NCBI GenBank assembly: GCA_963803805.1
Contig: CAWDOD010000002.1
Coordinates: forward strand, 736,001 to 800,000
Source: an uncultured cyanobacterium
Lineage (GTDB): Bacteria > Cyanobacteriota > Cyanobacteriia > Cyanobacteriales > CAWCAG01
Direction of reading: 5' to 3'
DNA length: 64,000 nucleotides
The notes below the pieces were generated by a model. That model saw nothing but the letters and a program-made list of their open reading frames with translations. It ran no database searches and was not told where the DNA came from. Made by a program: the position numbers and the translations under genes. Below are positions 3-39,198 of the stretch, in pieces. Position 1 is the first letter of the stretch, and each line of letters opens with the position of its first letter.

Positions 3-3000
3 GTAGTTCTTAATTCTGCCTTACCTGCCATTGATAGAGCGAAAGCGAAGATGGAAAAGGTATTTGCTTCGCCGACTACTAGGGGAACAGCCTCGGAAAT
101 CATTATTAATACTGAGTTTAAAAAATCTAAGTTTACTTTCAAAGATGAAACTCGCTTAGAAATTGCTTACGATGCGGCTACACCTGCGGGTATCCAAGGG
201 GGAATAGGTAAGCCGGCTGTCAATCTCAAAGAAGATGAAACCAGCATCAATGCTTGGCGTTTTCCTGTCGATACAAATAACAACGGTAAATTTGATAGCT
301 TTACTCTCTACAGCTTAGTATTCCGTACTCCGCTTTTTGATCCTGCTGGTACTGATGGTGACTATATCAGGGAAAGGACTCCCATCGAAGCCAGGACAGC
401 CCCTATGGACGATGGAGATGTGGGGGGCTTTTGTGCCGCAGCTTTAGGGACGAGTGCGAGTTTAACCGGTAGTAGTGACTGGTTTGATATTGGTGGAGAC
501 TTAAAGAAAAGCTTTTTTGTTTATGTGGCTACCGTACCAATTACAGATATAACGGAATTAGCCCTTTCTACTACGGAGTATGAAAACTTTCCGGGAACTC
601 CTAACTTCTCTGTGTTGGAATATCAACAAGACCGAGTAGAAATTCCCCCTGCTAACAACGCTATCCTTTATACCGATGACTTGGATGTAGTTTCTGGTAC
701 ACCTTTACGCATTAATGGGCGGATTTTTACTAACAGTAATATGTTGGTGACGGAACTAAACAATGCCCCCATTGAATTTTATCAAGTTAGTAGTGAAGAT
801 TCTTGCTTCTATAGACCAGAAAACGGCAAAATTGTTATTGGAGGGAACTTAGGTTACGGCAGAATTGGTGCAGCTAGCCCTCCTGCTAATAACCTCAAAG
901 CTGACCTTTATAAAAAAGGTAACGTTACTGTCAAAAATGATGCTTTAACCCCTACCAATAAAAGCGTTACCCAAGCTTCAGACTTGTTGGCATACAATAC
1001 CCAAGCTTATGAACAACGCATCAATAAGCTTGTAGAGGAAGGTGCGCCAAATGACGAGGTTTTAGAAACAAAGCAAGCACTCATAGATGAAAAAGGCTTA
1101 GATGCTATCGAGGCTGAGAAACAGGCGATGGATATCTACTTCCGTAACCGTACTCGTCGAGTTCCTTTCGTTGAAGTTCCTGCTGGAGGTGATGGCACAG
1201 TTGGTTTCACAGCAGTACAGGGGGCTGGGACAGACGATATGCGTCCACAAGATAGTTGGATGTTTCCTTTTAATCCTGGTGATGGCAAAACAGGGACTGG
1301 TTTCAGTACTATGACCCTGAATGCCAATGGCACTAAACTTTACCCCGCAGCTACCAATCCAGATAATATCCAAAGTGATAGGGAAGAAAGGGTAGGAGAT
1401 CGCGTTTTAGTTGGTAACGGTTTACCGGCCCTTTGGTACGACAACAGTGGCTTCGTGGGGGAAAAAGAAAAACAACCCATTTCTGGCTTCACCTGGGATG
1501 ATAGTGGGCAACGTTATCGCCAAACTCGCTCTGAGTTGGTTAAAGACTTGGATGCGACAGAAAGGGGTGGTTTTTGGGAACAGGCAGCGGCTGAACATTT
1601 CCAGAAGCCTGAAGATGGTATAGGTGGCTTGCGAGTTGTTACAGGTGCAGGTGTTTATTTACCTTGGGATGCCAATATCACTACGGGTTCTAATGTCAGT
1701 CTGACCTGATACAATGCCTCAGCCAGCTCTGAATACGACTACATATCCGACAGGAGTACCTACAACTACTCCTAATACAGGAAAGGTTTATACAGCAGGC
1801 AGTCCTATAGACTCTGCTGGTACTCGTCCTTACCTACATATGCGGGCAACGGCAGTTTATCACCATAACAATTTTGTTGCTGATGGAGATAAAAATATTG
1901 CTAGAGATCCCATAGCCTGTGTAGCGACTTTCTACGACCCCACTACGAAAGAAACAGCCAGGAATCGTTTAAACGACTTTGGGGGTGCTAGTCTTGCCAG
2001 CGATGCTGATTTTGACTTTGGTGATGGTGCAACTCCATTTGATGATGTTAGTGGTTTTGCTGCCAGGAGGCCTGTAGTAAATCCTCCTAACCCCGTTCTT
2101 ACTCTTGGCAGTATACCGACAAGGGCAACTTTAGTTGGTGATACTGATCCTAACAATGACCCTAACTCCCTCAATGGTATAACCTACGGACCGCCTACGA
2201 CTCCAGATACTGCTCAACTTGATTATCAAGCAGGACTATTTTATCCTAATGGACGCAGGGTCAATCCTTTATTAGAACAGGCTAGGATTAAAGGATATAC
2301 CAGTGCTACACTGACACTTCAAGAGAAAGCTGCGGTAGATACAGCAACTTGCGCCCTGGATATTCTTAATGGAAGTTTAACTCCTACAGGAACTCCAACT
2401 AGTGGTTTTAGCTTGCCCCACGGCACGATTCAGGAAGTATCTTTCCTTGATGCTCGGCAGATTAAGTCCATTGAGAAAGATATTAATACCAATCCAACTA
2501 ATGGGTATGATCCTGAAAACAACTTTGACCCAGCAGCAGGGACACCTAATTTCCAAGGTGTAACCACCCTCAACACATCAAATTACGACTTATCCATTGA
2601 GCTTCGTCAGCCCTTGGAAATCAGGGCTACTCAAATCAACTTAGACAAATTACGTCAAGCTCCTGGTGGAGGAGGTACGCCCACAGAATATATGCTTGCC
2701 CATAGCGGTATTATCTACGCTACCCGCGAGGATGCTTTACCAGACTTGACTGATGCTGATGGTTTACAAGCAAGTGCCTCTGACCACAAACTAGACCCAA
2801 CTCGCAGACCTAACGGCATCTTGCTAGTTAATGGCAAGGAGTTAGGGCGAGAACCAAGCAACAATTATGTAGAAGCGGAAAAAGGTTTAATCTTAGCTTC
2901 TAACTTACCAGTTTATGTAAAAGGGGATTTTAACCTCCACGATCACGAAGAATTTGATACTAAATTACTTCCTGATTGGAGTAACTTTTATACCCGCACC

Positions 3001-4572
3001 GATTTGAATAAAAACTTCGCTTGTCGTAAAAATGATACCAGGTTGCCAGATTGTACTCAAGGGGATAAGTGGCGACCAGCAACTGTATTAGCAGATTCTG
3101 TGACGCTTTTGTCTGATAACTTCCGCTTTGGTTTCCGCGATGAAGGTGACTTTGATTTAAGGAACAATCGCATTGATAACATAGCGGATGCGGATAATGA
3201 TGGAACCACAGATATAGATAACTTCCAAACTATTCGGAATGACCGGGCAAAGAATGGTTTTTGGGATAACAACTTTGTTACTAGCCGCTCTTTTACTGAT
3301 ACTAACTTCTCAACTCCTATTTCTGCTACTGGCGATCCCACTAAGTACAGCTCTTATTTCAATAACTTTGTTACTCCAATTCAAAGACGGAGTGGTTTCG
3401 CAGAGTATGTGATGGAAATGTGTCCCAAACTACCTGTTTCTGAATGTGCTGCGAGTGACTGGATTTTAGCCCCAGGTGTGACATCAGCAACTGTGATAGC
3501 AGGTACAGCAGTTACTTCCCTGACATCAGGAACTACTAAAACAGCCGCAACCAACACAGCGGAGCAACGTTTTCCCCGTAGAGTTGCCTTCCAACGCAAT
3601 GGTTCAGGAAATTTAGTTTTAGTTGGTGGTCGCCCAGTGGCATGGGGAGTAGATAGTAGTAGCAAGGTTCAGCTCTATAGCGGTACGAGTGTTCCTTCTA
3701 ATAAACCAGGTAACACTCTTTGGTTCAAAACCATTAAATCTGGTGCTATCAACTGGGGAAAAAATAATCCACTATTTATTCAAAATCAAGCTGCTCTTAC
3801 AGGCGCAACTCCAGATGAACATCCTCTTTTAGAACCAGTAACACAACTACAAATTGCCACTAAAAATTCCCCTGGCGATGAGGCTAGTTTCTTAAATTTA
3901 ATGAGTAGCAGCAATAATCCAGTTGCGCTGACAGAATGGCTACCTCAAGCTGCTCTAAATCCCTCTGCAACAGGAAACGAAGGAACTACCTTTAACATGA
4001 TTATGGCAGTAGGAGATAATCCTTCCCGTCCTCCTGGTGCTAGTGATGATGGAGACTTTAATGGTGGTGTAGCTAACTTACCTCACTTTTTGGAAAACTG
4101 GAAATCGAATTTAACAAACAATAACAGCCCTACTACCCCTTCCAAAATTAGCGGTTCGTTTATTCAACTCAAACGAAGTAGCTATGCAACTGCTCCCTTC
4201 GTGACAGTACCTATAATTGATGACCAAGACGCTTATACCAGGGTGGCAGACAGTAGATTTGGCACTAAGCTAAGCTACAGGACAGGTAACAGTGACGGGC
4301 GAGTTCCATACTACGAAGCACCAGAAAGACAATGGGGTTTTGATGTCGGCTTGCTTTCTCAGTCTCCTGACTTATTCTCCAAGGAATTCGCTCAATCCTT
4401 TAGCGGTGAACCCAATGAATACTTCCGAGAAATTAGTCGGGATGATGAATGGATAGAAACCTTGCTTTGTGGTAAACCTCTAACCCCAGCAGAAGATGCG
4501 ATCGCATCTACAAAAGCAATCAACGATAGAATACGTCCTAACGGATTCTGTACTGCTAAAACAGGAGGCTAA
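3..4572 (+). pseudogene. hpsA: HpsA-like large protein (hormogonium polysaccharide locus), 5'-truncated by window edge and split into two ORFs (..1709 and 1714..4572)
   Basis: Frame is open from base 3 (VVLNSALPAIDRAKAK). Motifs GGLRVVTGAGVYL, LEIRAT, GIIYATREDAL, GLILASNLPVYVKGDFNLH, NGGVANLPHFLENW and WGFDVGLL resemble cyanobacterial HpsA, and three pseudopilins follow. Break at about 1698-1704; may be a sequencing error rather than a real pseudogene. Confidence 0.75.
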
Positions 4573-31231: not shown

Positions 31232-34200
31232 TTGAGGGGGCGCTACAGTAAAAGTATTGAGTCAATAATAGAAATTATGCTCATAGAATCTATTATCAGC
31301 GCCTTAACAACCATTGTTAATCCCAGTGAAATCATCAAGGATGAACTGAAACGTAATGAGACAGTTATCAAACTCCTCAAGAGGTTTCACCTTGATCCTG
31401 AACAACCACCCAAGGAGTTTGCCGCAGTTTATGGCTATGCTTTGGTGGAGTATGGTGTGGGGAAATCGCCAACTATTTTAAATGTCTTTCGGCAACAGGA
31501 AATTAAGAAAGTCTTTAAACAAGCTTTTGAAAGTAATCAACCTTCCCGATTATTTCAGGAAGTAGCCAACTTTCTGACTGACCATTCATTAGGGCAACGG
31601 CTAAGGGAAGAAAATGTTGATTGGCAGCGAGAATTATCTGAATTTGCTGGTATTTTCCTGGCAGTAGTAAAGCGTACTCGCACCCCCGCAGAAGTGTTAG
31701 CTAGTCAGCAATTGGGTTCTCTACACAAGACTTTGACTAGTTTACAGCAAGCCTTGGCTAATTTGCCTACTACCGAGAGTATGCAGCGAGAAATTATTAA
31801 ATTGATATCTCAAGGTTATCCTGCTTTGCAACCAGCAAATAAGAAGCCATGTCAAGCTGCTGAGTTGGGGCAGCAATTGCTGGATTGGTTTGAGACTTTG
31901 GGTTATGGGTTTGAAGGTTATCAGGTGTGGGCAGAGGAATATTTTGCCACTATTATCAATGTTCGTGTGTGGAGGAAAAATTATCGTCGCATTTTGGTGA
32001 GGGGGATTGCGGGAGAGGTAGGGCTTAAAGATGTTAGGGCTTTACAAGAAGCGGTGAGTAGCCATAATACCCAGGAAGGTTGGCTAGTTTCTGCTAGACG
32101 AGTGAGTCAAGCAGCCCGTAAAGCCATGGAAAAAGGGGAGAATAGTCACTTAGTTTGCTGTACTTTTGATGAATTGTTAGATGAAGATGCTGATTTTACT
32201 ACTTATTTAGACTGGTTAGCAGAAGAGGTACAACGGCGTAGTATTGACCGTTTTTATGTTCCTTTGGGTTGCAGGAAAGAAGAAGTTGATCCGGAGACGA
32301 AACAGAGATTGGGAGTTAGTTCCTATGGGGAAGAAGATGGTTGGATTGAGGGTTATGTTGATTTGTGGTTAAGTGATCCGGCGAAGGAACACCTTTCGGT
32401 GTTAGGGGAGTTTGGTACAGGAAAAACTTGGTTCGCGTTGCATTATGCTTGGGTTGCTTTACAGAAATATCAAGAAGCGAAAGGAAAAGGTTTACCTCGT
32501 CCCCGTTTGCCTTTGGTTATTTCTTTGCGGGATTATGCTACGGCTGTGAGTGTAGAGTCTTTATTTTCGGAGTTCTTTTTTCGTAAATACGAAATACCTA
32601 TCCCCGGCTACAGTGCCTTTGAACAACTGAACCGCATGGGCAAATTGTTGCTGATTTTTGATGGTTTTGATGAAATGGCCGCCAGGGTAGATCGGCAAAA
32701 GATGATTAATAACTTTTGGGAATTGGCTAAGGTGGTTGTTCCCGGTGCGAAAGTTATTCTTACCTGTCGTACCGAACATTTCCCTGAAGCGAAACAGGGT
32801 AGGGCTTTGCTTAATGCGGAGTTACGTTCTTCTGTGGCTAACTTAACAGCAGAATCTCCCCAATTTGAGGTTTTAGAATTAAATAAGTTTGATGATGAAC
32901 AGATTCGCCAGGTGTTTTCTTTTCAGGCAGAAGAGGCTACGGTGGAAAGGATTATGGGTAATCAGCAACTGCTGGATTTAGCCCGTCGTCCGGTGATGAC
33001 GGATTTGATTTTGGAGGCTTTGCCGGAGATTGAGGAGGGAAAACCTGTGGATATGTCTAGGGTTTATCTCTATGCGGTGCGGCGGAAGATGGAGAGGGAT
33101 ATAAAATCAGAAAGGACTTTTACTTCTTTGGCAGATAAAATGTATTTCCTCTGTGAGTTGGCTTGGGAGATGCTTTCTACTGACCAAATGAGTCTTAATT
33201 ATCGCCTCTTTCCAGAGAGGATTAGGCGCTTGTTTGGGACTACGGTACAGGAGGAGAAGGATTTAGACCACTGGCATTACGACATGATGGGGCAAACTAT
33301 GTTGGTGCGAAACTCTGAGGGGAATTACAGCCCTGCCCATCGTTCTTTATTAGAGTTTTTTGTTGCTTATAAGTTGGCAGCAGAGTTGGGAGTTTTGGCG
33401 GAGGATTTTTTAGATGTGGTGCGGCAGCAGTCAGATTTAGATGAGGGAGTTGCAGCCCAGAGTTATGGTTGGTTTGAGTATTTTCAGCGTCGGAGGAATA
33501 GTGCGGGGGAGATTGTTCCTATTGCTGGGTTGAAAGAGTTTCGTTGTGAGTCTTTGGGGCGTTTGAGAGGAAGTTTAGGACAGAGGCCCCTGGCTAAGGC
33601 AGTTTGGGATTTGTTAGTGCCGATGGTGGATAAGGAGAAAGTGGGGAGGTTATTGGATGTGGTAGAAGGTACGCGGGGCAAGACGGAGGAGGAGGTTGGT
33701 TATGTTGGGGGGAATGCAGCGACGCTTTTGGTTAAGGTTGATAATGGGGCGATTGAAGGTAAAGATTTGAGTGAAACTGTAGTTATTGGAGGGGACTTTG
33801 TTAATGCAAGCTTGCGTGATGTAAATTTTGCGAAAGCAAATCTAGCTAATTCTATTTTTCCAAAAACATTAGGTGCGATTTTAAGTATCGCTTTTAGTCC
33901 CGATGGTAAACTTTTAGCTACAGGTGATGCTAATTGTAATGTTGTTCTTTGGGAGGTTGCTACAGGTAAACAAATCTTACTTTGTCAAGATCACAATGAT
34001 TGGGTAAGTTCAGTGGCTTTTGATTCAACGGGAAAAATTGCTGTTAGTGGTAGTTTTGACAACAATATTAAACTCTGGGATTTATTTACTGGCGAATGTT
34101 TAACAACTCTACAAGGTCATACTAACAGAATTCACTCAGTTGCTATCAGTCCTGACAACAAAATTCTAGCTAGTGGTAGTGCTGATTGTACAGTAAGGTT

Positions 34201-35728
34201 ATGGGATCTGGTTACAGGTGCTTGTCTACAAACTTTATCAGAGTATACCAGCATTGTACGTACAGTAGCTTTTAGTCCAGATGGTCAAATGTTAGCCAGT
34301 GGCGGTAGCAATAAACGAATTAAATTTTGGTATTTGCCAGCAAAAGAGTATAGACAAACTTTACAAGGTCACACTGATTTACTCATGACAGTAGCTTTTA
34401 GTCCAGATGGTAGAACTTTAGTTAGTAGCAGCCAAGATGGAACTCTAAAACTATGGAATCTAGAAACTGGAGAATGTATTCAAACATCAGAGGAACATAC
34501 AGATTCGATTAGATGCGTTGCTATTAGTTCTGACAGTAAAACTATCGCCAGTGCAAGCGATGACAACACAGTAAATATCTGGAGTTTGGAAACTGGAGAA
34601 CGTATTCAAACACTAGAGGGACATACAGATTGGGTTAGAGGTGTTACCGTTAGTCCTGACAGTAAAATTATTGCTAGCGGTGGAGAAGATCAAAGCATTA
34701 GATTTTGGAGTAGAAACACTGGAGAATGCCTCAAGATTATACAAGGTCATTCAGGAGGTATTAGAGGAATAGCATTATACCCAGATGGTAAAACAATTAT
34801 TAGTGGTAGTGAAGACAGTGTAGTCAGAATTTGGGATTTTTCTACTGGTAAATGTCTAAAAACTTTGCGTGGACATACCAGTCGTATTAATGATGTAGCT
34901 ATTACTTCAGATGGCAATATTATTGTGACCTGTAGCTATGATAAAACTATTAAGCTATGGGATAAAATAACAGGTAAATGCTTACAAACTTTGCAAGAAC
35001 ATGAGCGACCAGTTAATTCATTAGCACTTAGTTTAGATGGACAACTTTTAGTTAGTGGTAGTGCAGACAAAACTGTTAAGATATGGGATCTCGCAAAAGG
35101 AGAATGTATCAAGACTTTGCAGGAACATGATGATTGGACTTGGTCTGTAGCAATTAGCCCTGATAATCAATTTGTTGTTAGTTGCAGTGATGACCAGACT
35201 GTGAAAATTTGGGAAGTCTCCTCTGGCAAGTGTTTGTATACTTTGCAATTATGTGTCAAGGGTCTGAGGTCAATAGCTTTTAGCAAAGATGGAAAAGCTT
35301 TAGCAATTGGGACTATTGATTCTGTTATAAAAATTCTAAATTTCAAGACACTTACCTGTTTTAGAAATTTAGAAGGGCATAAGAATAGCATTAAATCAGT
35401 AGCATTTAGTCCAGATGACAAAATTCTTGCCAGTAGTGGTGCAGACCGTATAATTAAATTATGGGATATGCAGACAGGAAAATGCCTCCAAACCTTAACA
35501 GGACATACGAACATAGTACAATCAATAACATTTAACATCGACGGCAAAACTCTAATTAGTGGTAGCTACGACGAAACCATCAAAATCTGGGACGTTGAAA
35601 CAGGGCAATGTCTCAAAACCCTCAGCAACAAACCCTACGCCAACATGAACATCACCGGAGTCAAAGGATTAAGCCCAGAACAAATCAACTCCCTCAAGGC
35701 TTTAGGGGCAGTGGAAAGTGGGCAATAG
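31232..35728 (+). CDS. NACHT NTPase with pentapeptide and WD40 repeats; N-terminal Mrr-like segment; start probably ATG 31277
   Basis: Walker A GEFGTGKT, Walker B LIFDGFDEM, pentapeptide stretch, about 14 WD40 repeats, C-terminal PY..MNITGVKGL..Q..SLKALGA. Confidence 0.93.
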   Translation: MRGRYSKSIESIIEIMLIESIISALTTIVNPSEIIKDELKRNETVIKLLKRFHLDPEQPPKEFAAVYGYALVEYGVGKSPTILNVFRQQEIKKVFKQAFESNQPSRLFQEVANFLTDHSLGQRLREENVDWQRELSEFAGIFLAVVKRTRTPAEVLASQQLGSLHKTLTSLQQALANLPTTESMQREIIKLISQGYPALQPANKKPCQAAELGQQLLDWFETLGYGFEGYQVWAEEYFATIINVRVWRKNYRRILVRGIAGEVGLKDVRALQEAVSSHNTQEGWLVSARRVSQAARKAMEKGENSHLVCCTFDELLDEDADFTTYLDWLAEEVQRRSIDRFYVPLGCRKEEVDPETKQRLGVSSYGEEDGWIEGYVDLWLSDPAKEHLSVLGEFGTGKTWFALHYAWVALQKYQEAKGKGLPRPRLPLVISLRDYATAVSVESLFSEFFFRKYEIPIPGYSAFEQLNRMGKLLLIFDGFDEMAARVDRQKMINNFWELAKVVVPGAKVILTCRTEHFPEAKQGRALLNAELRSSVANLTAESPQFEVLELNKFDDEQIRQVFSFQAEEATVERIMGNQQLLDLARRPVMTDLILEALPEIEEGKPVDMSRVYLYAVRRKMERDIKSERTFTSLADKMYFLCELAWEMLSTDQMSLNYRLFPERIRRLFGTTVQEEKDLDHWHYDMMGQTMLVRNSEGNYSPAHRSLLEFFVAYKLAAELGVLAEDFLDVVRQQSDLDEGVAAQSYGWFEYFQRRRNSAGEIVPIAGLKEFRCESLGRLRGSLGQRPLAKAVWDLLVPMVDKEKVGRLLDVVEGTRGKTEEEVGYVGGNAATLLVKVDNGAIEGKDLSETVVIGGDFVNASLRDVNFAKANLANSIFPKTLGAILSIAFSPDGKLLATGDANCNVVLWEVATGKQILLCQDHNDWVSSVAFDSTGKIAVSGSFDNNIKLWDLFTGECLTTLQGHTNRIHSVAISPDNKILASGSADCTVRLWDLVTGACLQTLSEYTSIVRTVAFSPDGQMLASGGSNKRIKFWYLPAKEYRQTLQGHTDLLMTVAFSPDGRTLVSSSQDGTLKLWNLETGECIQTSEEHTDSIRCVAISSDSKTIASASDDNTVNIWSLETGERIQTLEGHTDWVRGVTVSPDSKIIASGGEDQSIRFWSRNTGECLKIIQGHSGGIRGIALYPDGKTIISGSEDSVVRIWDFSTGKCLKTLRGHTSRINDVAITSDGNIIVTCSYDKTIKLWDKITGKCLQTLQEHERPVNSLALSLDGQLLVSGSADKTVKIWDLAKGECIKTLQEHDDWTWSVAISPDNQFVVSCSDDQTVKIWEVSSGKCLYTLQLCVKGLRSIAFSKDGKALAIGTIDSVIKILNFKTLTCFRNLEGHKNSIKSVAFSPDDKILASSGADRIIKLWDMQTGKCLQTLTGHTNIVQSITFNIDGKTLISGSYDETIKIWDVETGQCLKTLSNKPYANMNITGVKGLSPEQINSLKALGAVESGQ

Positions 35729-35814
35729 GTAATAGGCACTCTTGCAATAGTATTATTACTTTTTGCACCCTCAGCTTTACTTAGTCTGATTATCCGGATT
35801 TGATATCATTGATT

Positions 35815-36007
35815 AGTCATCTTCAGATGACTTTTGCTATTAGCCTGAAATTTATTTCTAGGCGAGATGAAATCTCAAAACAGGAGAATGCTTCAAAACT
35901 CTCAGCAACAAATCCTACACCAATGTGAACATCACCAGAGTTAAGACTTAGAAACCGCTAGGGATTAAAATCCCCAGCTTACAGCTTAAGTCATCTCAAA
36001 GATGACT
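35815..36007. repeat. Inverted pair of REP-like elements flanking a decayed copy of the WD40 gene 3' end
   Basis: AGTCATCT-N2/3-AGATGACT hairpins at 35815-35832 and 35989-36007 within oppositely oriented elements. Confidence 0.65.
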
Positions 36008-36053
36008 CGGAGTCCTTAGACTTCTCACTTGGAGTCTAAACATTGATGAATAG

Positions 36054-36140
36054 GTAGGTTGGGTAGAGCGATTGCAACACCCAACGCACTCGCTCTCACG
36101 CCTTGCTGCTGTTGGATTTTCTCCGTCAATCCAATCTACA
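36054..36140. repeat. Degenerate REP doublet (GTAGGTTGGG...CCAATCTAC)
   Basis: gtaggttgggtaga..cccaac .. tgttggat..tcaatccaatctac; a related half-element lies at about 61375-61407. Confidence 0.6.
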
Positions 36141-36633
36141 GTTCATGACTTTTGATCTAGATTTGAGATTAGTTACTGAGGATTTTTGTAGCCCATAAAT
36201 AAGCAAGAAATTATTTTACTAATTCTCTTGGTACTATCTTCTTGACATGATATATTTGATAATGGGGAATATATATTTTCATTCAAAAAATTGCAAATAT
36301 TCCCATTATCTAAAATAATTATACTACGTCAAGGGAAAATAAAAATTGAATTTAGAAAAAGATTTTTTTCGTAATATTTGGAAATGTTTAAATTAGCGAT
36401 CGCAAGCCTTCTACTTCGACTGCCATCCTCCTCAAACATTAGTAGAAAGAGGCTATTGCCTTAAAAATAGTACAAAGTTAGGGTAATCCCTCAACTTAAC
36501 TTCCTACCCCTAACCACTCAAACAACCCAACAGAATAGCATTGCGGCTTAAATGTAGCCAATTTGCCTTGGGGAACATACCTCTATTTACCTTAAGTATG
36601 TACAGTTAATCAACCTTAAAGAGGTATTCAACA

Positions 36634-36789
36634 ATGCTAACCAACCAAAAATCCAGCGTTTGTTTCCCTAAAGCTAGTGTTTGCTTTCCCCAAGCTAGCG
36701 TATGTTTCCCTCAACAAAGCTCTACTAATCAAGCACGTCCGACTGTTTCTCTGGTTCTAGAAGACTTGTCTAAGAGCTTGAAGCGTTAA
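36634..36789 (+). CDS. 51-aa peptide with three SVCFP repeats (candidate precursor peptide); absent from the ORF track
   Basis: MLTNQKSSVCFPKASVCFPQASVCFPQQSSTNQARPTVSLVLEDLSKSLKR; AAGAGG RBS ending 9 nt before ATG; repeats differ synonymously. Confidence 0.8.
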   Translation: MLTNQKSSVCFPKASVCFPQASVCFPQQSSTNQARPTVSLVLEDLSKSLKR

Positions 36790-36814
36790 TAACTTTATTG
36801 CGGCTTATTTATAT

Positions 36815-36844
36815 TGTAGGGGCAAGGGGCCCCTTGCCCCTACA
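36815..36844. repeat. Perfect 30-bp palindrome (GTAG-type REP / mRNA stem-loop)
   Basis: TGTAGGGGCAAGGGG|CCCCTTGCCCCTACA. Confidence 0.85.
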
Positions 36845-36918
36845 GAACTGGCTATTGCCACGAAATGGAGAAAAAGGACGCTACATATCATTCCCTCATC
36901 CTATCAGGAGGTTAAATA

Positions 36919-37734
36919 GTGAAAAACCCTGCTGGTTCCTACGGTTTTGAATCCTTAGAAACAAGCGCCCAGGAACAAGAAATATGGCGATTAAAGAATC
37001 AAGCAAACACTATTGTTCCTCCTCAAAGCGCTTTTTTGCAACAACTAGGGATTAAACCAGGGATGAAAGTACTAGATCTTGCTTGTGGCTCTGGTGTGAA
37101 TAGTTGCCAAATTGCTAAATTCGTCACTCCAGGAAAAGTAATTGGCGTGGATCTCAGTAAGTCAATTTTGGCTAAAGCAGAACTTATCAAAGCCAGGCAA
37201 GGTATTAATAACGTCGAATTCTACCAAGGAGATGCCTATCAACTTGACTTTCCCGAAGCATCATTTGACTTTGTTTATGTTCGGCTTTTGTTTCAACATC
37301 TTACCCATCCCCTCGAAGTACTCAAAAATATTCATCGAGTTTTGAAACCAGGGGGACTCTTGTGCGTATTAGATATTGATGAAGGTTGGGCAACCCTCTA
37401 TCCTGAACCAGAGTCTTTTACTTTGTATCGCCAAAGTTTTGCTAAAATGCAAAAAAAACTAGGCGGTGACACCTTTGTGGGGCGTAAGCTTGGTAGCTAT
37501 TTACAAAAAACAGCATTAGTCGAGGTAAAAACTCATGTAGAAATTATCTCCAGCGACGATATTGGCTTAGATAATTTTCTTAATCTCCTTTCTTTTGGTA
37601 CTCCTTATAACTCTCAACAAAAATATTTAGCAGAAGTAGCTACTCAAGCAAAAGAAGATGCCTATGCTTTATTGCTTATTCCCTACGCTTGGGCTGGGTT
37701 AGGAATTTTTGTGGTTACTGGACGTAAAGTTTAG
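36919..37734 (+). CDS. Class I SAM-dependent methyltransferase
   Basis: Motif I VLDLACGSG, GVDLS, GDAYQL, SFDFVY, VLKPGG; AGGAG RBS before GTG start. Confidence 0.92.
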   Translation: MKNPAGSYGFESLETSAQEQEIWRLKNQANTIVPPQSAFLQQLGIKPGMKVLDLACGSGVNSCQIAKFVTPGKVIGVDLSKSILAKAELIKARQGINNVEFYQGDAYQLDFPEASFDFVYVRLLFQHLTHPLEVLKNIHRVLKPGGLLCVLDIDEGWATLYPEPESFTLYRQSFAKMQKKLGGDTFVGRKLGSYLQKTALVEVKTHVEIISSDDIGLDNFLNLLSFGTPYNSQQKYLAEVATQAKEDAYALLLIPYAWAGLGIFVVTGRKV

Positions 37735-37766
37735 GTGAATTTGAATAGTTTATTCCTTGAATTTAA

Positions 37767-37797
37767 AAAGGACATCTTGGGAGGTGAGATGTCCTTT
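37767..37797. terminator. Probable bidirectional intrinsic terminator between convergent methyltransferase and psbK
   Basis: AAAGGACATCT-N9-AGATGTCCTTT stem. Confidence 0.65.
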
Positions 37798-37820
37798 AAA
37801 CAGATTTGCAAATTGAAAAT

Positions 37821-37958
37821 TTACTTGAATCCGACTGCTGCTTGCCAAACAAAGGCAAGTAAAAGAAAAAAGAGAGGAATAATTGGTAAAACATCCACTA
37901 AAGGATCGAAAAGAGAATAAGCTTCGGGTAATTTCGCCAATAGCATTGCTACTTCCAT
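37821..37958 (-). CDS. psbK: Photosystem II reaction center protein K; absent from the ORF track
   Basis: [45 protein letters not shown]; downstream of tgt. Confidence 0.97.
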
Positions 37959-38085
37959 ATTATTTTTTTACCTTCCTAAGACAATTTTTAATCATATTTA
38001 AGGAAAATTTTAACATGAGTTGGTTGGCCGCTTCGCGGTAAGTCAAAAGGCAAAAATCAAAAGTCAAAAGTCAAAGAATTGTTTC

Positions 38086-39198
38086 CTAATCCTCTATACC
38101 CTTTAGCCAATTGCCAAAATCCTCTACAAAACTGCCAGCAATGATCGCTCTTCTGATATCTTCGGTGAAGCGGATTAATTCTCTAACGTTGTGTAAAGAC
38201 AGTAAAATATAACCCAACATTTCCCGCGATCGCACTAGATGATTAAGGTAGGCGCGGGAGAAAGTCTGGCAAGTGTAACAGCTACAAAGGGAATCTAGGG
38301 GAGTAAAATCTTCTCGAAAGCAAGCATTTTTGAGATTCAAACGTTTTCCCCTTACCAAAGCCGTACCATGACGGCCAAAACGTGTGGGAATAACGCAATC
38401 AAACATATCAATTCCGGAAGCAATTCCCTGCACCATTTCTCGATATGTACCTACCCCCATTAAATATCTTGGCTTATGGTCAGGCAAAAGGGGAGCCGTT
38501 GAGCGTACAATCTCATTAATAAGTTCTGGAGGTTCCCCTACACTTACCCCTCCTATAGCATAACCAGGCAAGTCTAGATCTGCTAAATCCTGAGCTGCCT
38601 TTTGGCGCAAATCAGTATAAACTCCCCCTTGTACAATGGCGAATAAAGCCTGTTCCTGGGGGCGTTGGTGGGCTTGGATAGAACGTTTTAACCAACGATA
38701 GGTACGTTCAGTAGCTGCAACCACCTCAGAACGCTCAGCAGGGTAAGGGGGGCATTCATCGAAGGCCATGATAATATCCGCACCAAGGGCATTCTGAATC
38801 TGAATAGAACTTTCTGGAGTGAAGTTAATTATTCTGCCATCTCTAGGAGAGCGAAATTCAACTCCTTGTTCAGTTATTTTCCGTAGTTTGCTAAGACTAA
38901 ATACTTGAAAGCCACCAGAATCAGTTAAAATCGGTTGCCGCCAACCCATGAAGTTGTGGAGTCCCCCCGCTGCTGTGATAATTTTTTCTCCTGGTTGGAG
39001 ATGTAGATGATAAGTATTAGCTAAAATAGTTTGAGCCTGACAATCTTCTAACTGCGCCGGAGTCAAGCCTTTAACTGTTGCCAAGGTTCCCACAGGCATA
39101 AATTTAGGAGTTTCCATGTTGCCATGAGGAGTATGCAACACTCCAGCCCTAGCCTGGGTTTGATGACAATGCCCTTGATGCTGAAAAGAAAATCCCAC
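38086..39198 (-). CDS. tgt: Queuine tRNA-ribosyltransferase
   Basis: [31 protein letters not shown], CxCxxC zinc site. Confidence 0.97.

Follow-up and report, generated by a model that had tools for sequence, protein, structure and literature searches.

The stretch analyzed here, referred to as the window, comprises 64,000 nucleotides (nt) of the genome of an uncultured cyanobacterium of the order Cyanobacteriales (GenBank assembly GCA_963803805.1; contig CAWDOD010000002.1, positions 736,001 to 800,000). A 51-codon open reading frame (ORF) in the window encodes a peptide with three repeated cysteine units and is followed by a hairpin and a gene for a class I S-adenosylmethionine (SAM)-dependent methyltransferase. 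The original prediction for this DNA had proposed that these elements form a minimal system resembling those of peptides that are synthesized on ribosomes and modified after translation (RiPPs). The ORF, its AAGAGG ribosome-binding site (RBS), the three synonymously differing SVCFP units, the 30-bp palindrome, and the co-oriented methyltransferase gene were all present at the places it had given. The features of the locus are as follows:

36619..36624, + strand: RBS of the peptide gene, AAGAGG, read from the sequence, 9 nt ahead of the ATG
36634..36789, + strand: peptide ORF, ATG at 36634 and TAA at 36787-36789, encoding the 51 residues MLTNQKSSVCFPKASVCFPQASVCFPQQSSTNQARPTVSLVLEDLSKSLKR
36815..36844, + strand: perfect 30-bp palindrome TGTAGGGGCAAGGGGCCCCTTGCCCCTACA, a 13-bp GC-rich hairpin between the peptide and methyltransferase genes, terminator- or attenuator-like
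36906..36911, + strand: RBS of the methyltransferase gene, AGGAGG, read from the sequence, 7 nt ahead of the GTG
36919..37734, + strand: class I SAM-dependent methyltransferase, GTG start, 271 residues, identified with Pfam
37770..37794, + strand: hairpin GGACATCT...AGATGTCC, then TTTAAAC, a possible terminator of the methyltransferase gene

The peptide gene and its family

The window peptide consists of a polar N-terminus, three (S/A)SVCFP(K/Q) Cys units (residues 7–27), a spacer, and RPTVSLVLEDLSKSLKR. Its cysteines are located at positions 10, 17, and 24, and an RP dipeptide at positions 35–36 follows the last Cys at a distance of 11 residues. TVSLVLED comes directly after RP, in line with the family pattern of a Cys among small or hydrophobic residues, a gap of approximately 10 residues, and an RP trailed by alternating hydrophobic residues and an acidic one. 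The peptide ends with ...DLSKSLKR. At the DNA level, the SVCFP units differ at four positions between units 1 and 2, at one position between units 1 and 3, and at five positions between units 2 and 3, all of which are synonymous third positions. In a Monte Carlo calculation, the chance that five substitutions placed at random in a single 15-nt unit would leave every residue unchanged was approximately 8e-5. Therefore, the peptide has been under selection and the repeats cannot stem from recent slippage, in agreement with the original prediction, which had favored selection on the peptide over DNA slippage. Its sequence shows the 51-codon ORF to be a real gene that is conserved and subject to purifying selection. 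No paralog of the peptide was found in the source genome.

No model for the peptide was present in Pfam or NCBIfam. The Pfam family Myotoxins matched it with an E value of 0.017, and this identity was rejected as a chance match (15.8 bits; cut-off 25). A search of the ESM Atlas with the peptide yielded a top score of 0.76 and no lead. A family profile built from eight peptides was run against 1.84 billion representative proteins and matched 40 proteins at E ≤ 1e-3, including 10 at E ≤ 1e-10; the lengths of 37 of the 40 were 42–68 residues. A word-based search identified two close relatives, P0002 (three units) and P0003 (two units), in which the unit is extended to KASVCFPHQSSS. A six-frame search of 61 related genomes provided one clear homolog, a 45-residue ORF in genome G017. 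It carries two S(A/S)FCFPR units and a C-terminus as in the window peptide, and it is located 220 nt upstream of an ortholog of the methyltransferase. Where the family proteins are named in the source annotation, they are designated "hypothetical protein." These homologs place the peptide in a genuine family that lacks a database model. Ten phylum-wide six-frame matches of the eight-peptide profile beyond the source genome (E values, 0.002–0.008) were rejected because all five that were inspected turned out to be wrong-frame reads over known genes, such as the gene of ATP synthase subunit b. Weak first-round matches, such as 25 in genome G050, were low-complexity or repeat matches.

The family members share a layout composed of a polar N-terminus, one to four units of the pattern [Q/K]-A-S-[F/I/L/V]-C-[F/L/I/V]-[P/L/I/C], a spacer, and the RP dipeptide, with which a 14–19-residue end of the form RP(S/T)VxLxLxDL... 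begins. The last Cys is positioned 7–13 residues before RP; among 41 measured peptides, the distance is 9–11 residues in 36. Across 42 aligned peptides, no variation occurs in the Cys, the RP proline, or one Leu, and the Arg is nearly invariant. At least two cysteines are found in 43 of 45 peptides; two is the usual number per peptide, whether as one in each of two units or as a pair in one CxC/CxxC unit. Tandem units are identical within the peptide in 25 of the 34 tandem-type peptides, and the mean unit distance over six positions was 0.54 within peptides compared to 2.57 between peptides. Units are thus usually alike within a peptide and unlike between peptides, and those of the window peptide are identical despite their synonymous divergence, which fits a specificity element co-evolving with a partner.

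Two family members with unusual architectures were also observed. The 134-residue protein P0027 contains a hydrophobic N-terminus and two complete modules (PPK.SGCSLKDVSQQ.RPS..LELEDL), which corresponds to a tandem duplication of the whole peptide. In genome G262, two tandem small ORFs of 72 and 60 residues lie on the minus strand of locus L052 (G262:C1:17880-21056), at 1489-1707 and 1810-1992. Each contains two AA(I/M)CNPP(L/F)CNG units and an RPxVELxLxDPL end, representing a divergent branch of the family with two cysteines per unit. These ORFs are located between an RsmD-like methyltransferase gene and an MFS transporter gene.

The methyltransferase, the hairpin, and the GRDP-like partner

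The window methyltransferase matched the Pfam families Methyltransf_31, Methyltransf_11, and Methyltransf_25 with E values of 4.5e-27 to 5.4e-24. It is orthologous to the methyltransferase downstream of the peptide at seven other loci, with orthologs at 41–53% identity and further ones in genomes G695 and G696. Across seven orthologs including the window protein, 65 columns are invariant, all of which the window protein keeps. To survey the order, 401 genomes were sampled and an ortholog cut-off of E ≤ 1e-40 was used for the methyltransferase. Orthologs were found at seven loci in six of the genomes. The peptide was encoded directly upstream at six of the seven, so the small ORFs with a variable copy number (one to four Cys units) that the original prediction had suggested looking for beside methyltransferase homologs do occur. 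The peptide profile detected the family in the source genome (G000), twice each in G017 and G190, in G191, in G315, and, as a weak divergent match, in G262. Within the family of G190, the peptide was present in four of 39 genomes, which added two new loci, in G695 and G696, with the methyltransferase just downstream. A short precursor gene beside a dedicated tailoring-enzyme gene, which belongs to the general definition of a RiPP system, is therefore seen at six of the seven methyltransferase loci and in G695 and G696. No peptide was found at 80 metagenomic loci of distant class I methyltransferases (at most 41% identity); the patterns of this alignment-based metagenomic scan were too generic, and the 80 loci serve only as a negative control. 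A scan of genome contigs with the single methyltransferase protein retrieved only four distant methyltransferases with 35–38% identity.

Several more specific identities of the methyltransferase were considered. The ArsM-type NCBIfam models matched it with E values of 4e-21 to 2e-18, no better than the UbiE-type models, and its assignment as arsenite methyltransferase ArsM was rejected (NF008823, 66.8 bits versus a cut-off of 263; NF041537, 75.2 versus 510). The likeness to PIMT is weak, as Pfam PCMT gave an E value of 3.2e-11 compared to 4.5e-27 for the generic class I family, and the NCBIfam PIMT model gave 36.6 bits against a cut-off of 359. A borosin-type enzyme was also rejected, since no tetrapyrrole-methylase model was among the 25 Pfam families shown out of 27 matched. 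A complex prediction of the methyltransferase with SAM and the peptide (score 0.00, mark 0.32) speaks neither for nor against binding.

The palindrome between the two genes is single-copy in the window, with none expected in shuffled sequences, and in the 5.3-Mb genome; being unique in the whole assembly, it is not a dispersed repeat. Two computations of the RNA fold of the intergenic region gave z = -3.3 and z = -5.5. A GC-rich hairpin was found between the peptide stop codon and the methyltransferase gene in all eight peptide–methyltransferase loci (z values, -2.0 to -6.1), and for five of the eight no shuffled sequence among 300 folded as well. The hairpins share the same position, have unrelated sequences, and are followed by T-runs in several cases. 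The stem-loop that had been noted between precursor and enzyme genes is thus a conserved element. The terminator that had been predicted after the methyltransferase gene fared less well. The hairpin at 37770-37794 exists, but it was missed by a consensus terminator scan, and its role as a terminator is therefore only plausible.

A third gene was associated with the module. A GRDP-like protein of approximately 130 residues is encoded upstream of the peptide in seven of the eight peptide–methyltransferase loci, the window being the exception. The system is accordingly not the minimal one that had been proposed, because this GRDP/UCP032817-like partner precedes the peptide in the seven complete loci. 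The GRDP-like proteins matched Pfam GRDP-like (PF07173) with E values of 3e-7 to 8e-3, three of five above the cut-off, and also PF27765, named "UCP032817-like." The domain was detected in 113 of the 401 genomes. Its AlphaFold2 model has a predicted local distance difference test (pLDDT) score of 90.2 and consists of six helices. A conserved patch rich in His, Asp, and Cys, VDxVWHxHxLDTxKYxxDC...FGxFxxH(x)PY, includes D71, H75, C88, and H98, which are invariant, and H77, D80, and D87, which are nearly so. This patch hints at a metal site or an active site.

Among the 30 best GRDP loci, 20 encode a GRDP-like protein with a fused Cys...RP tail, four are split and accompanied by the peptide and methyltransferase genes, five are tail-less, and one ends in a Cys tail that lacks RP. 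A fused tail reads, for example, ...KKPGVCVLVEHTNAMRPSVDIKVEISDFFG, and some tails contain two Cys units. The hidden Markov model of the free peptides matched six fused proteins with E values of 2e-5 to 5.5e-4. In 17 aligned fused forms, C144, R154, and P155 are the sole invariant residues of the tail, and their ten-residue spacing is as in the free peptides. The occurrence of the same tail fused to GRDP in 20 of the 30 best loci indicates that the window peptide is a detached tail of GRDP/UCP032817-like proteins. An A4-type methyltransferase was present within the 1.5-kb flanks at none of 26 non-split GRDP loci. The original prediction had placed a follower peptide at the C-terminus for recognition by the methyltransferase. 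The most conserved part of the peptide is indeed C-terminal and its layout is follower-like, but docking of this part on the GRDP-like protein appears likelier than docking on the methyltransferase, because in most relatives the tail is fused to the GRDP-like protein with no methyltransferase nearby. In the AlphaFold2 model of a fused form, the domain is well placed, and the RP-motif block (residues 151–160) has a mean pLDDT of 72, compared with 39–41 for the Cys-bearing linker blocks (131–150); this mildly favors docking via the RP motif.

The phylogeny of the GRDP domain was inferred by maximum likelihood from 32 rows, after removal of four fused rows that were near-duplicates (L147, L148, L149, and L169). 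A branch with 90/84 support, recovered in 98% of bootstrap trees, sets the seven split-type genes apart, and the other half of the tree contains most fused forms. Because the split-type genes are grouped in one part of the tree, the detachment of the tail and the arrival of the methyltransferase look like a single event.

Two further tails are of note. The largest number of units was seen in L162 (G342:C218:3827-7294; minus strand, 1303-1995), whose fused tail contains seven K(A/P/S)SDCLF units before SRPRPVRI. P0059–P0079 are high-GC GRDP-like relatives (40–47% identity) with Cys-rich tails of the form ...QPAASAC..HGDGSDCCVGC...RPRP, and the tail theme therefore probably extends beyond cyanobacteria.

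STAND NTPase neighbors and the source genome

The region upstream of the peptide gene in the window contains the following features:

31232..35728, + strand: gene of an NNH5-NACHT-WD40 STAND NTPase, 1498 residues, upstream and co-oriented; Pfam NNH5 (E value, 6e-48) and many WD40 propeller families
35729..36618, no strand assigned: spacer of approximately 900 nt with no long ORF, largely dispersed repeats according to a repeat comparison with the genome

The spacer includes an element of approximately 220 nt (window approximately 36179-36396) with at least 10 genome copies at 74–84% identity and a repeat of approximately 55 nt (window approximately 35952-36013), which forms a tandem array with a period of approximately 211 nt at G000:C6:171161-172357. 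The promoter of the peptide gene presumably lies within 35729-36618; a promoter scan of this spacer gave nothing above shuffled sequences. A tblastn search with five GRDP proteins revealed no GRDP gene or remnant in the window, the approximately 900 nt upstream of the peptide included, and Rfam showed no match at E ≤ 1 over 35700-38100.

Genes of STAND NTPases were a recurrent feature of the neighborhood. Long flanks were taken for five split loci, and 17 neighbor proteins were scanned with Pfam, namely 15 from these loci, the NACHT-WD40 protein of the window, and the neighbor of the GRDP gene on contig C11 of the source genome. In all five split loci, the methyltransferase gene is followed by a convergent gene of an NB-ARC protein (approximately 770–825 residues, with C-terminal TPRs), which has an N-terminal EAD4 domain in four of the five. 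The divergent upstream genes of the split loci encode an EAD4-NTPase with WD40, an nSTAND protein with TPR, a GerE/TRADD_N/DUF1822 protein, or a protein of approximately 270 residues with a TPR-CHAT protein. The main text of PMC7159879, the paper in which EADs were defined, presents them as adaptor domains in NTP-dependent conflict systems. At 23 non-split GRDP loci, Pfam was applied to 41 of the 56 ORFs with a length of 110 residues or more. At 21 of these loci there was at least one NB-ARC/NACHT, MalT-like TPR, EAD4-TRADD_N-DUF1822, GerE-NB-ARC, or AAA_35 neighbor; one of the 21, L173, matched TPR_12 only, and the two exceptions were L162 and L174, which had no such neighbor. The caspase-like TPR-CHAT proteins are encoded on the minus strands of L137 (1712-5347) and L140 (314-3733), divergently upstream of the split loci G017b and G315, and each is preceded by a conserved protein of approximately 270 residues without a Pfam match.

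No peptidase, cyclase, or exporter of the RiPP type was among the 17 scanned neighbor proteins, and an MFS transporter adjoins only the divergent peptides of G262. The additional RiPP genes for which the original prediction had proposed a search, such as those of radical SAM or YcaO proteins, a RiPP peptidase, or an exporter, were thus not among the neighbors scanned, and STAND NTPases were found instead. No metal transporter or resistance gene was conserved beside the loci among these neighbors. PADLOC-DB 2.0 contained no match for the peptide or for two GRDP proteins. In this database, the methyltransferase matched mad2 (1.1e-28) over the generic SAM-binding domain only, and the EAD4-NTPase matched STAND_TPR and Avs1b weakly. 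The best NCBIfam match of the NB-ARC-TPR neighbor was FxSxx_TPR, a weak match (E value, 4.9e-8) confined to the P-loop region.

The cognate GRDP gene of the source genome is located at G000:C11:647142-647535, divergent from an EAD4-NB-ARC gene. It has no tail and is placed in the tree as sister to the seven split-type GRDP genes (support, 87/83). The assembly shows it as two overlapping frames (L033 = G000:C11:645642-648878). At L033:1739, within the overlap of these frames, one base is missing from an independent Logan contig (depth 4.9) of sequencing run X1, a run that possibly represents the source sample, so an assembly error may account for the frameshift. Contig C4 carries another GRDP paralog, which is more distant and has a short Cys-bearing end. 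In genome G262 the genes are likewise unlinked, with a tail-less GRDP gene beside EAD4-NB-ARC and the two tandem divergent peptide genes elsewhere. In G001, a genome of the same genus as the source, locus L184 (G001:C5:711086-715292) contains a small ORF (2984-3295), which by eye resembles an alkyltransferase-like/MGMT DNA-binding domain, and then a truncated GRDP remnant (3428-3700), both behind an ortholog of the NACHT-WD40 gene. The remnant has 90% DNA identity to the C11 gene and is located approximately 700 nt downstream of the NACHT-WD40 ortholog.

Proposed function and comparison with known systems

We favor an explanation in which the locus acts as a RiPP-like peptide module in NTPase conflict systems and combines, in one subclade, a detached GRDP tail with a dedicated methyltransferase; we assign it a probability of approximately 0.5. 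It builds on a real gene and family, on a tail that occurs both fused and split, on synteny with methyltransferase, GRDP, and STAND genes, and on a conserved hairpin. From these we infer how docking, chemistry, the target of the methyltransferase, and a functional link to the NTPases may fit together. The peptide would dock via its RP motif on the GRDP-like domain, where its cysteines, normally at least two, would be bound or modified at the conserved His/Asp site. The methyltransferase would methylate the free peptide, most likely on a Cys thiol. The peptide may then act intracellularly as a substrate or ligand of the neighboring STAND NTPase (NB-ARC-TPR) conflict system and not as an exported antibiotic. 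The original prediction had treated the Cys units as cores; the presence of at least two cysteines in nearly all peptides fits cooperating thiols better than independent, excised cores.

A number of observations weigh against this explanation. GRDP, peptide, and methyltransferase genes are unlinked in the source genome, where GRDP lies on another contig, and the same-genus G001 has lost the peptide and the methyltransferase and has only the truncated GRDP. The methyltransferase ortholog of G110 has no neighboring peptide, and the peptide genes of G190:C199 and G262:C1 have no adjacent methyltransferase. The fused forms work without a methyltransferase, as judged from the 26 non-split loci, so methylation is not central to the family. 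No solved structural relative of the GRDP-like model was found (Foldseek, best E value of 0.66; VIA-align wide, best Z of 4.0; PDB-sequence profile, best E value of 0.22), so calling the domain an "enzyme" is a guess drawn from its invariant His, Asp, and Cys residues. In the AlphaFold2 model of the fused form, the Cys segment was not confidently placed. In addition, cyanobacterial genomes are rich in STAND genes, so the neighborhood signal could partly reflect shared islands.

In a classical RiPP pathway, along the lines of the original prediction, each Cys heptad would be a core that is S-, N-, or O-methylated by the methyltransferase and then released, and the enzyme would recognize a C-terminal follower. 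Tandem units that are mostly identical within a peptide and different between peptides agree with this scenario, as do unit numbers of one to four in free peptides and up to seven in a fused tail, the dedicated methyltransferase, and the hairpin after the precursor. RiPPs made by a minimal set of precursor and methyltransferase also exist, imiditides being an example outlined in 10.1101/2023.04.07.536058. However, the neighbors scanned at five loci included no RiPP peptidase, cyclase, or exporter and, at two of them, included CHAT-TPR proteins; two cysteines are the rule whether they come from two units or from a single CxC/CxxC unit; and the tail is fused to the GRDP-like domain in most loci, with no methyltransferase nearby. 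We consider such a pathway unlikely. The same cysteines could belong to a thiol module for metals, metalloids, or redox sensing, in which paired Cys together with the His and Asp of GRDP bind a metal or form a redox-sensitive disulfide and the methyltransferase acts on the metalloid or caps the thiol. The prevalence of at least two cysteines, the invariant or nearly invariant His, Asp, and Cys of the GRDP-like domain, and the weak ArsM-type matches of the methyltransferase point in this direction. These matches were far under the cut-offs (75 versus 510 and 67 versus 263 bits) and no better than those to UbiE-type models, no metal transporter or resistance gene was conserved beside the loci scanned, and the Cys flanks are hydrophobic and without further ligand residues, which makes a metal or redox role distinctly unlikely.

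The window genes could also be a stranded remnant in the source genome, that is, a peptide and methyltransferase pair separated from GRDP by a rearrangement, non-working, and surviving only for now. The position of GRDP on another contig and in two frames, the repeat-rich 900 nt upstream of the peptide, and the sister species G001, which has kept a truncated GRDP without the peptide and methyltransferase, would all be expected of such a remnant. Against this, the peptide and the methyltransferase are intact, the latter keeps its 65 invariant columns, and the repeat units diverge synonymously only; the frameshift may be an assembly error, given the X1 contig, and an unlinked arrangement is also found in G262. 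We therefore give decay of the locus little credence. Finally, the peptide could be the functionless product of a regulatory upstream ORF, whose translation, together with the hairpin, attenuates expression of the methyltransferase. A short ORF and a strong hairpin do lie directly upstream of the methyltransferase gene in eight of eight loci, but the peptide sequence is conserved between families, its C, R, and P being invariant; GRDP proteins carry a homologous sequence as a fused tail; peptide genes also occur without a downstream methyltransferase; and no alternative anti-terminator pairing was seen, although no search aimed at it was made. A purely regulatory role is therefore very improbable. 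The leader-peptide, cyanobactin-like, and ArsM readings were set aside on the evidence of conservation, neighbors, and scores.

The favored explanation, a detached GRDP tail serving NTPase conflict systems, can be extended to a bolder proposal, which we regard as speculative. The GRDP-like domain would be a new enzyme or receptor, peptide-directed and probably metal-dependent, whose target is its own Cys tail. In one lineage this tail would have been freed and methylated, and the free peptide might be an endogenous ligand, either activating or restraining, that is read by the TPR sensor of the adjacent NLR-like NB-ARC NTPases.

These findings tie a peptide family without a database model, by fusion and split, to a widespread domain annotated without a function (PF07173/PF27765), which is found in 113 of the 401 genomes and also in plants. 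The GRDP-like domain thereby gains a first concrete partner and a testable biochemical handle. For the STAND/NLR-like NTPase neighborhoods of multicellular bacteria, the module represents a new type of peptide module. For the RiPP field, it would be the second case, after the borosins, of a precursor both fused to and split from its partner, with the methyltransferase only in the split form. If a tail peptide acted on by GRDP is indeed an NTPase ligand, STAND immunity or programmed cell death in multicellular cyanobacteria would have a second messenger in the form of a ribosomal peptide.

No prior description of the peptide family, of a bacterial role of the GRDP/UCP032817-like domain, or of the three-gene module was found in the literature and database scans. 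The literature found on GRDP/DUF1399 concerns plants or unrelated uses of the acronym, with nothing on bacteria, the Cys...RP tail, the methyltransferase, or STAND neighbors. Searches on GRDP/DUF1399, UCP032817/PF27765/PF07173, EAD4/STAND, and follower-peptide RiPPs, with the supplements of PMC7159879 and PMC8195603 outside their scope, returned no such peptide, no bacterial GRDP–peptide–methyltransferase cluster, and no STAND link. The main text of PMC7159879 contains none of the terms "methyltransferase," "GRDP," and "DUF1399," and that of PMC8195603 contains neither GRDP nor DUF1399 and uses "methyltransferase" only for histone methyltransferases; the supplements of both may list GRDP-like neighbors.

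Among known systems, the FxSxx-COOH systems offer a parallel in their genomic setting. The main text of Kaur et al. (2020; PMC7159879) describes modules of an FxSxx-COOH peptide, a zincin peptidase, and a radical SAM protein coupled to AP-ATPase-TPR proteins, and proposes that the peptide is a toxin or signal. In both cases, a small ribosomal peptide that diverges fast and is conserved toward its C-terminus is encoded with modifying enzymes beside NB-ARC-TPR STAND NTPases. The hosts in that main text are actinobacterial, whereas the present host is a cyanobacterium. The present peptide has no FxSxx motif, and its neighbors, as far as scanned, include a GRDP-like domain and a class I methyltransferase in place of a zincin peptidase and radical SAM/SPASM protein. 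Imiditides, as summarized in 10.1101/2023.04.07.536058, are minimal RiPPs derived from a precursor and one PIMT-type methyltransferase. They share with the present module a short precursor beside a single SAM methyltransferase and no protease or exporter. Unlike the enzyme in that summary, the methyltransferase described here is far closer to Methyltransf_31/11/25 (E values, approximately 1e-27 to 1e-24) than to PCMT (3e-11); the module also has a GRDP-like third partner, and Cys instead of Asp is the target-like residue.

Precursors of the cyanobactin PatE type contain multiple cores, and those of the bottromycin type carry follower peptides. Tandem near-identical units and a conserved recognition-like segment C-terminal to the units are common to these precursors and the present family. 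The present family differs in that no subtilisin-like proteases of the PatA/PatG type or YcaO proteins were among the neighbors scanned, its units abut without flanking recognition sites, and it follows the two-Cys rule. Nothing in the analysis supported the likeness of the C-terminus to the cyanobactin LAELSEE motif that had been suggested originally. The PF07173 domain of the cyanobacterial partner protein also occurs in the GRDP-like/DUF1399 proteins of plants, which are long, rich in glycine, and associated with stress and development. Borosins are RiPPs in which, depending on the lineage, precursor and modifying enzyme are fused or separate, and their alpha-N-methyltransferases have a tetrapyrrole-methylase-like fold. 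Comparably, the peptide of the present family forms the C-terminus of its partner protein at 20 of 30 loci, and one subclade encodes it in a gene of its own. It differs from borosins in that this partner is an all-helical domain instead of a methyltransferase, and a separate class I methyltransferase accompanies only the split form.

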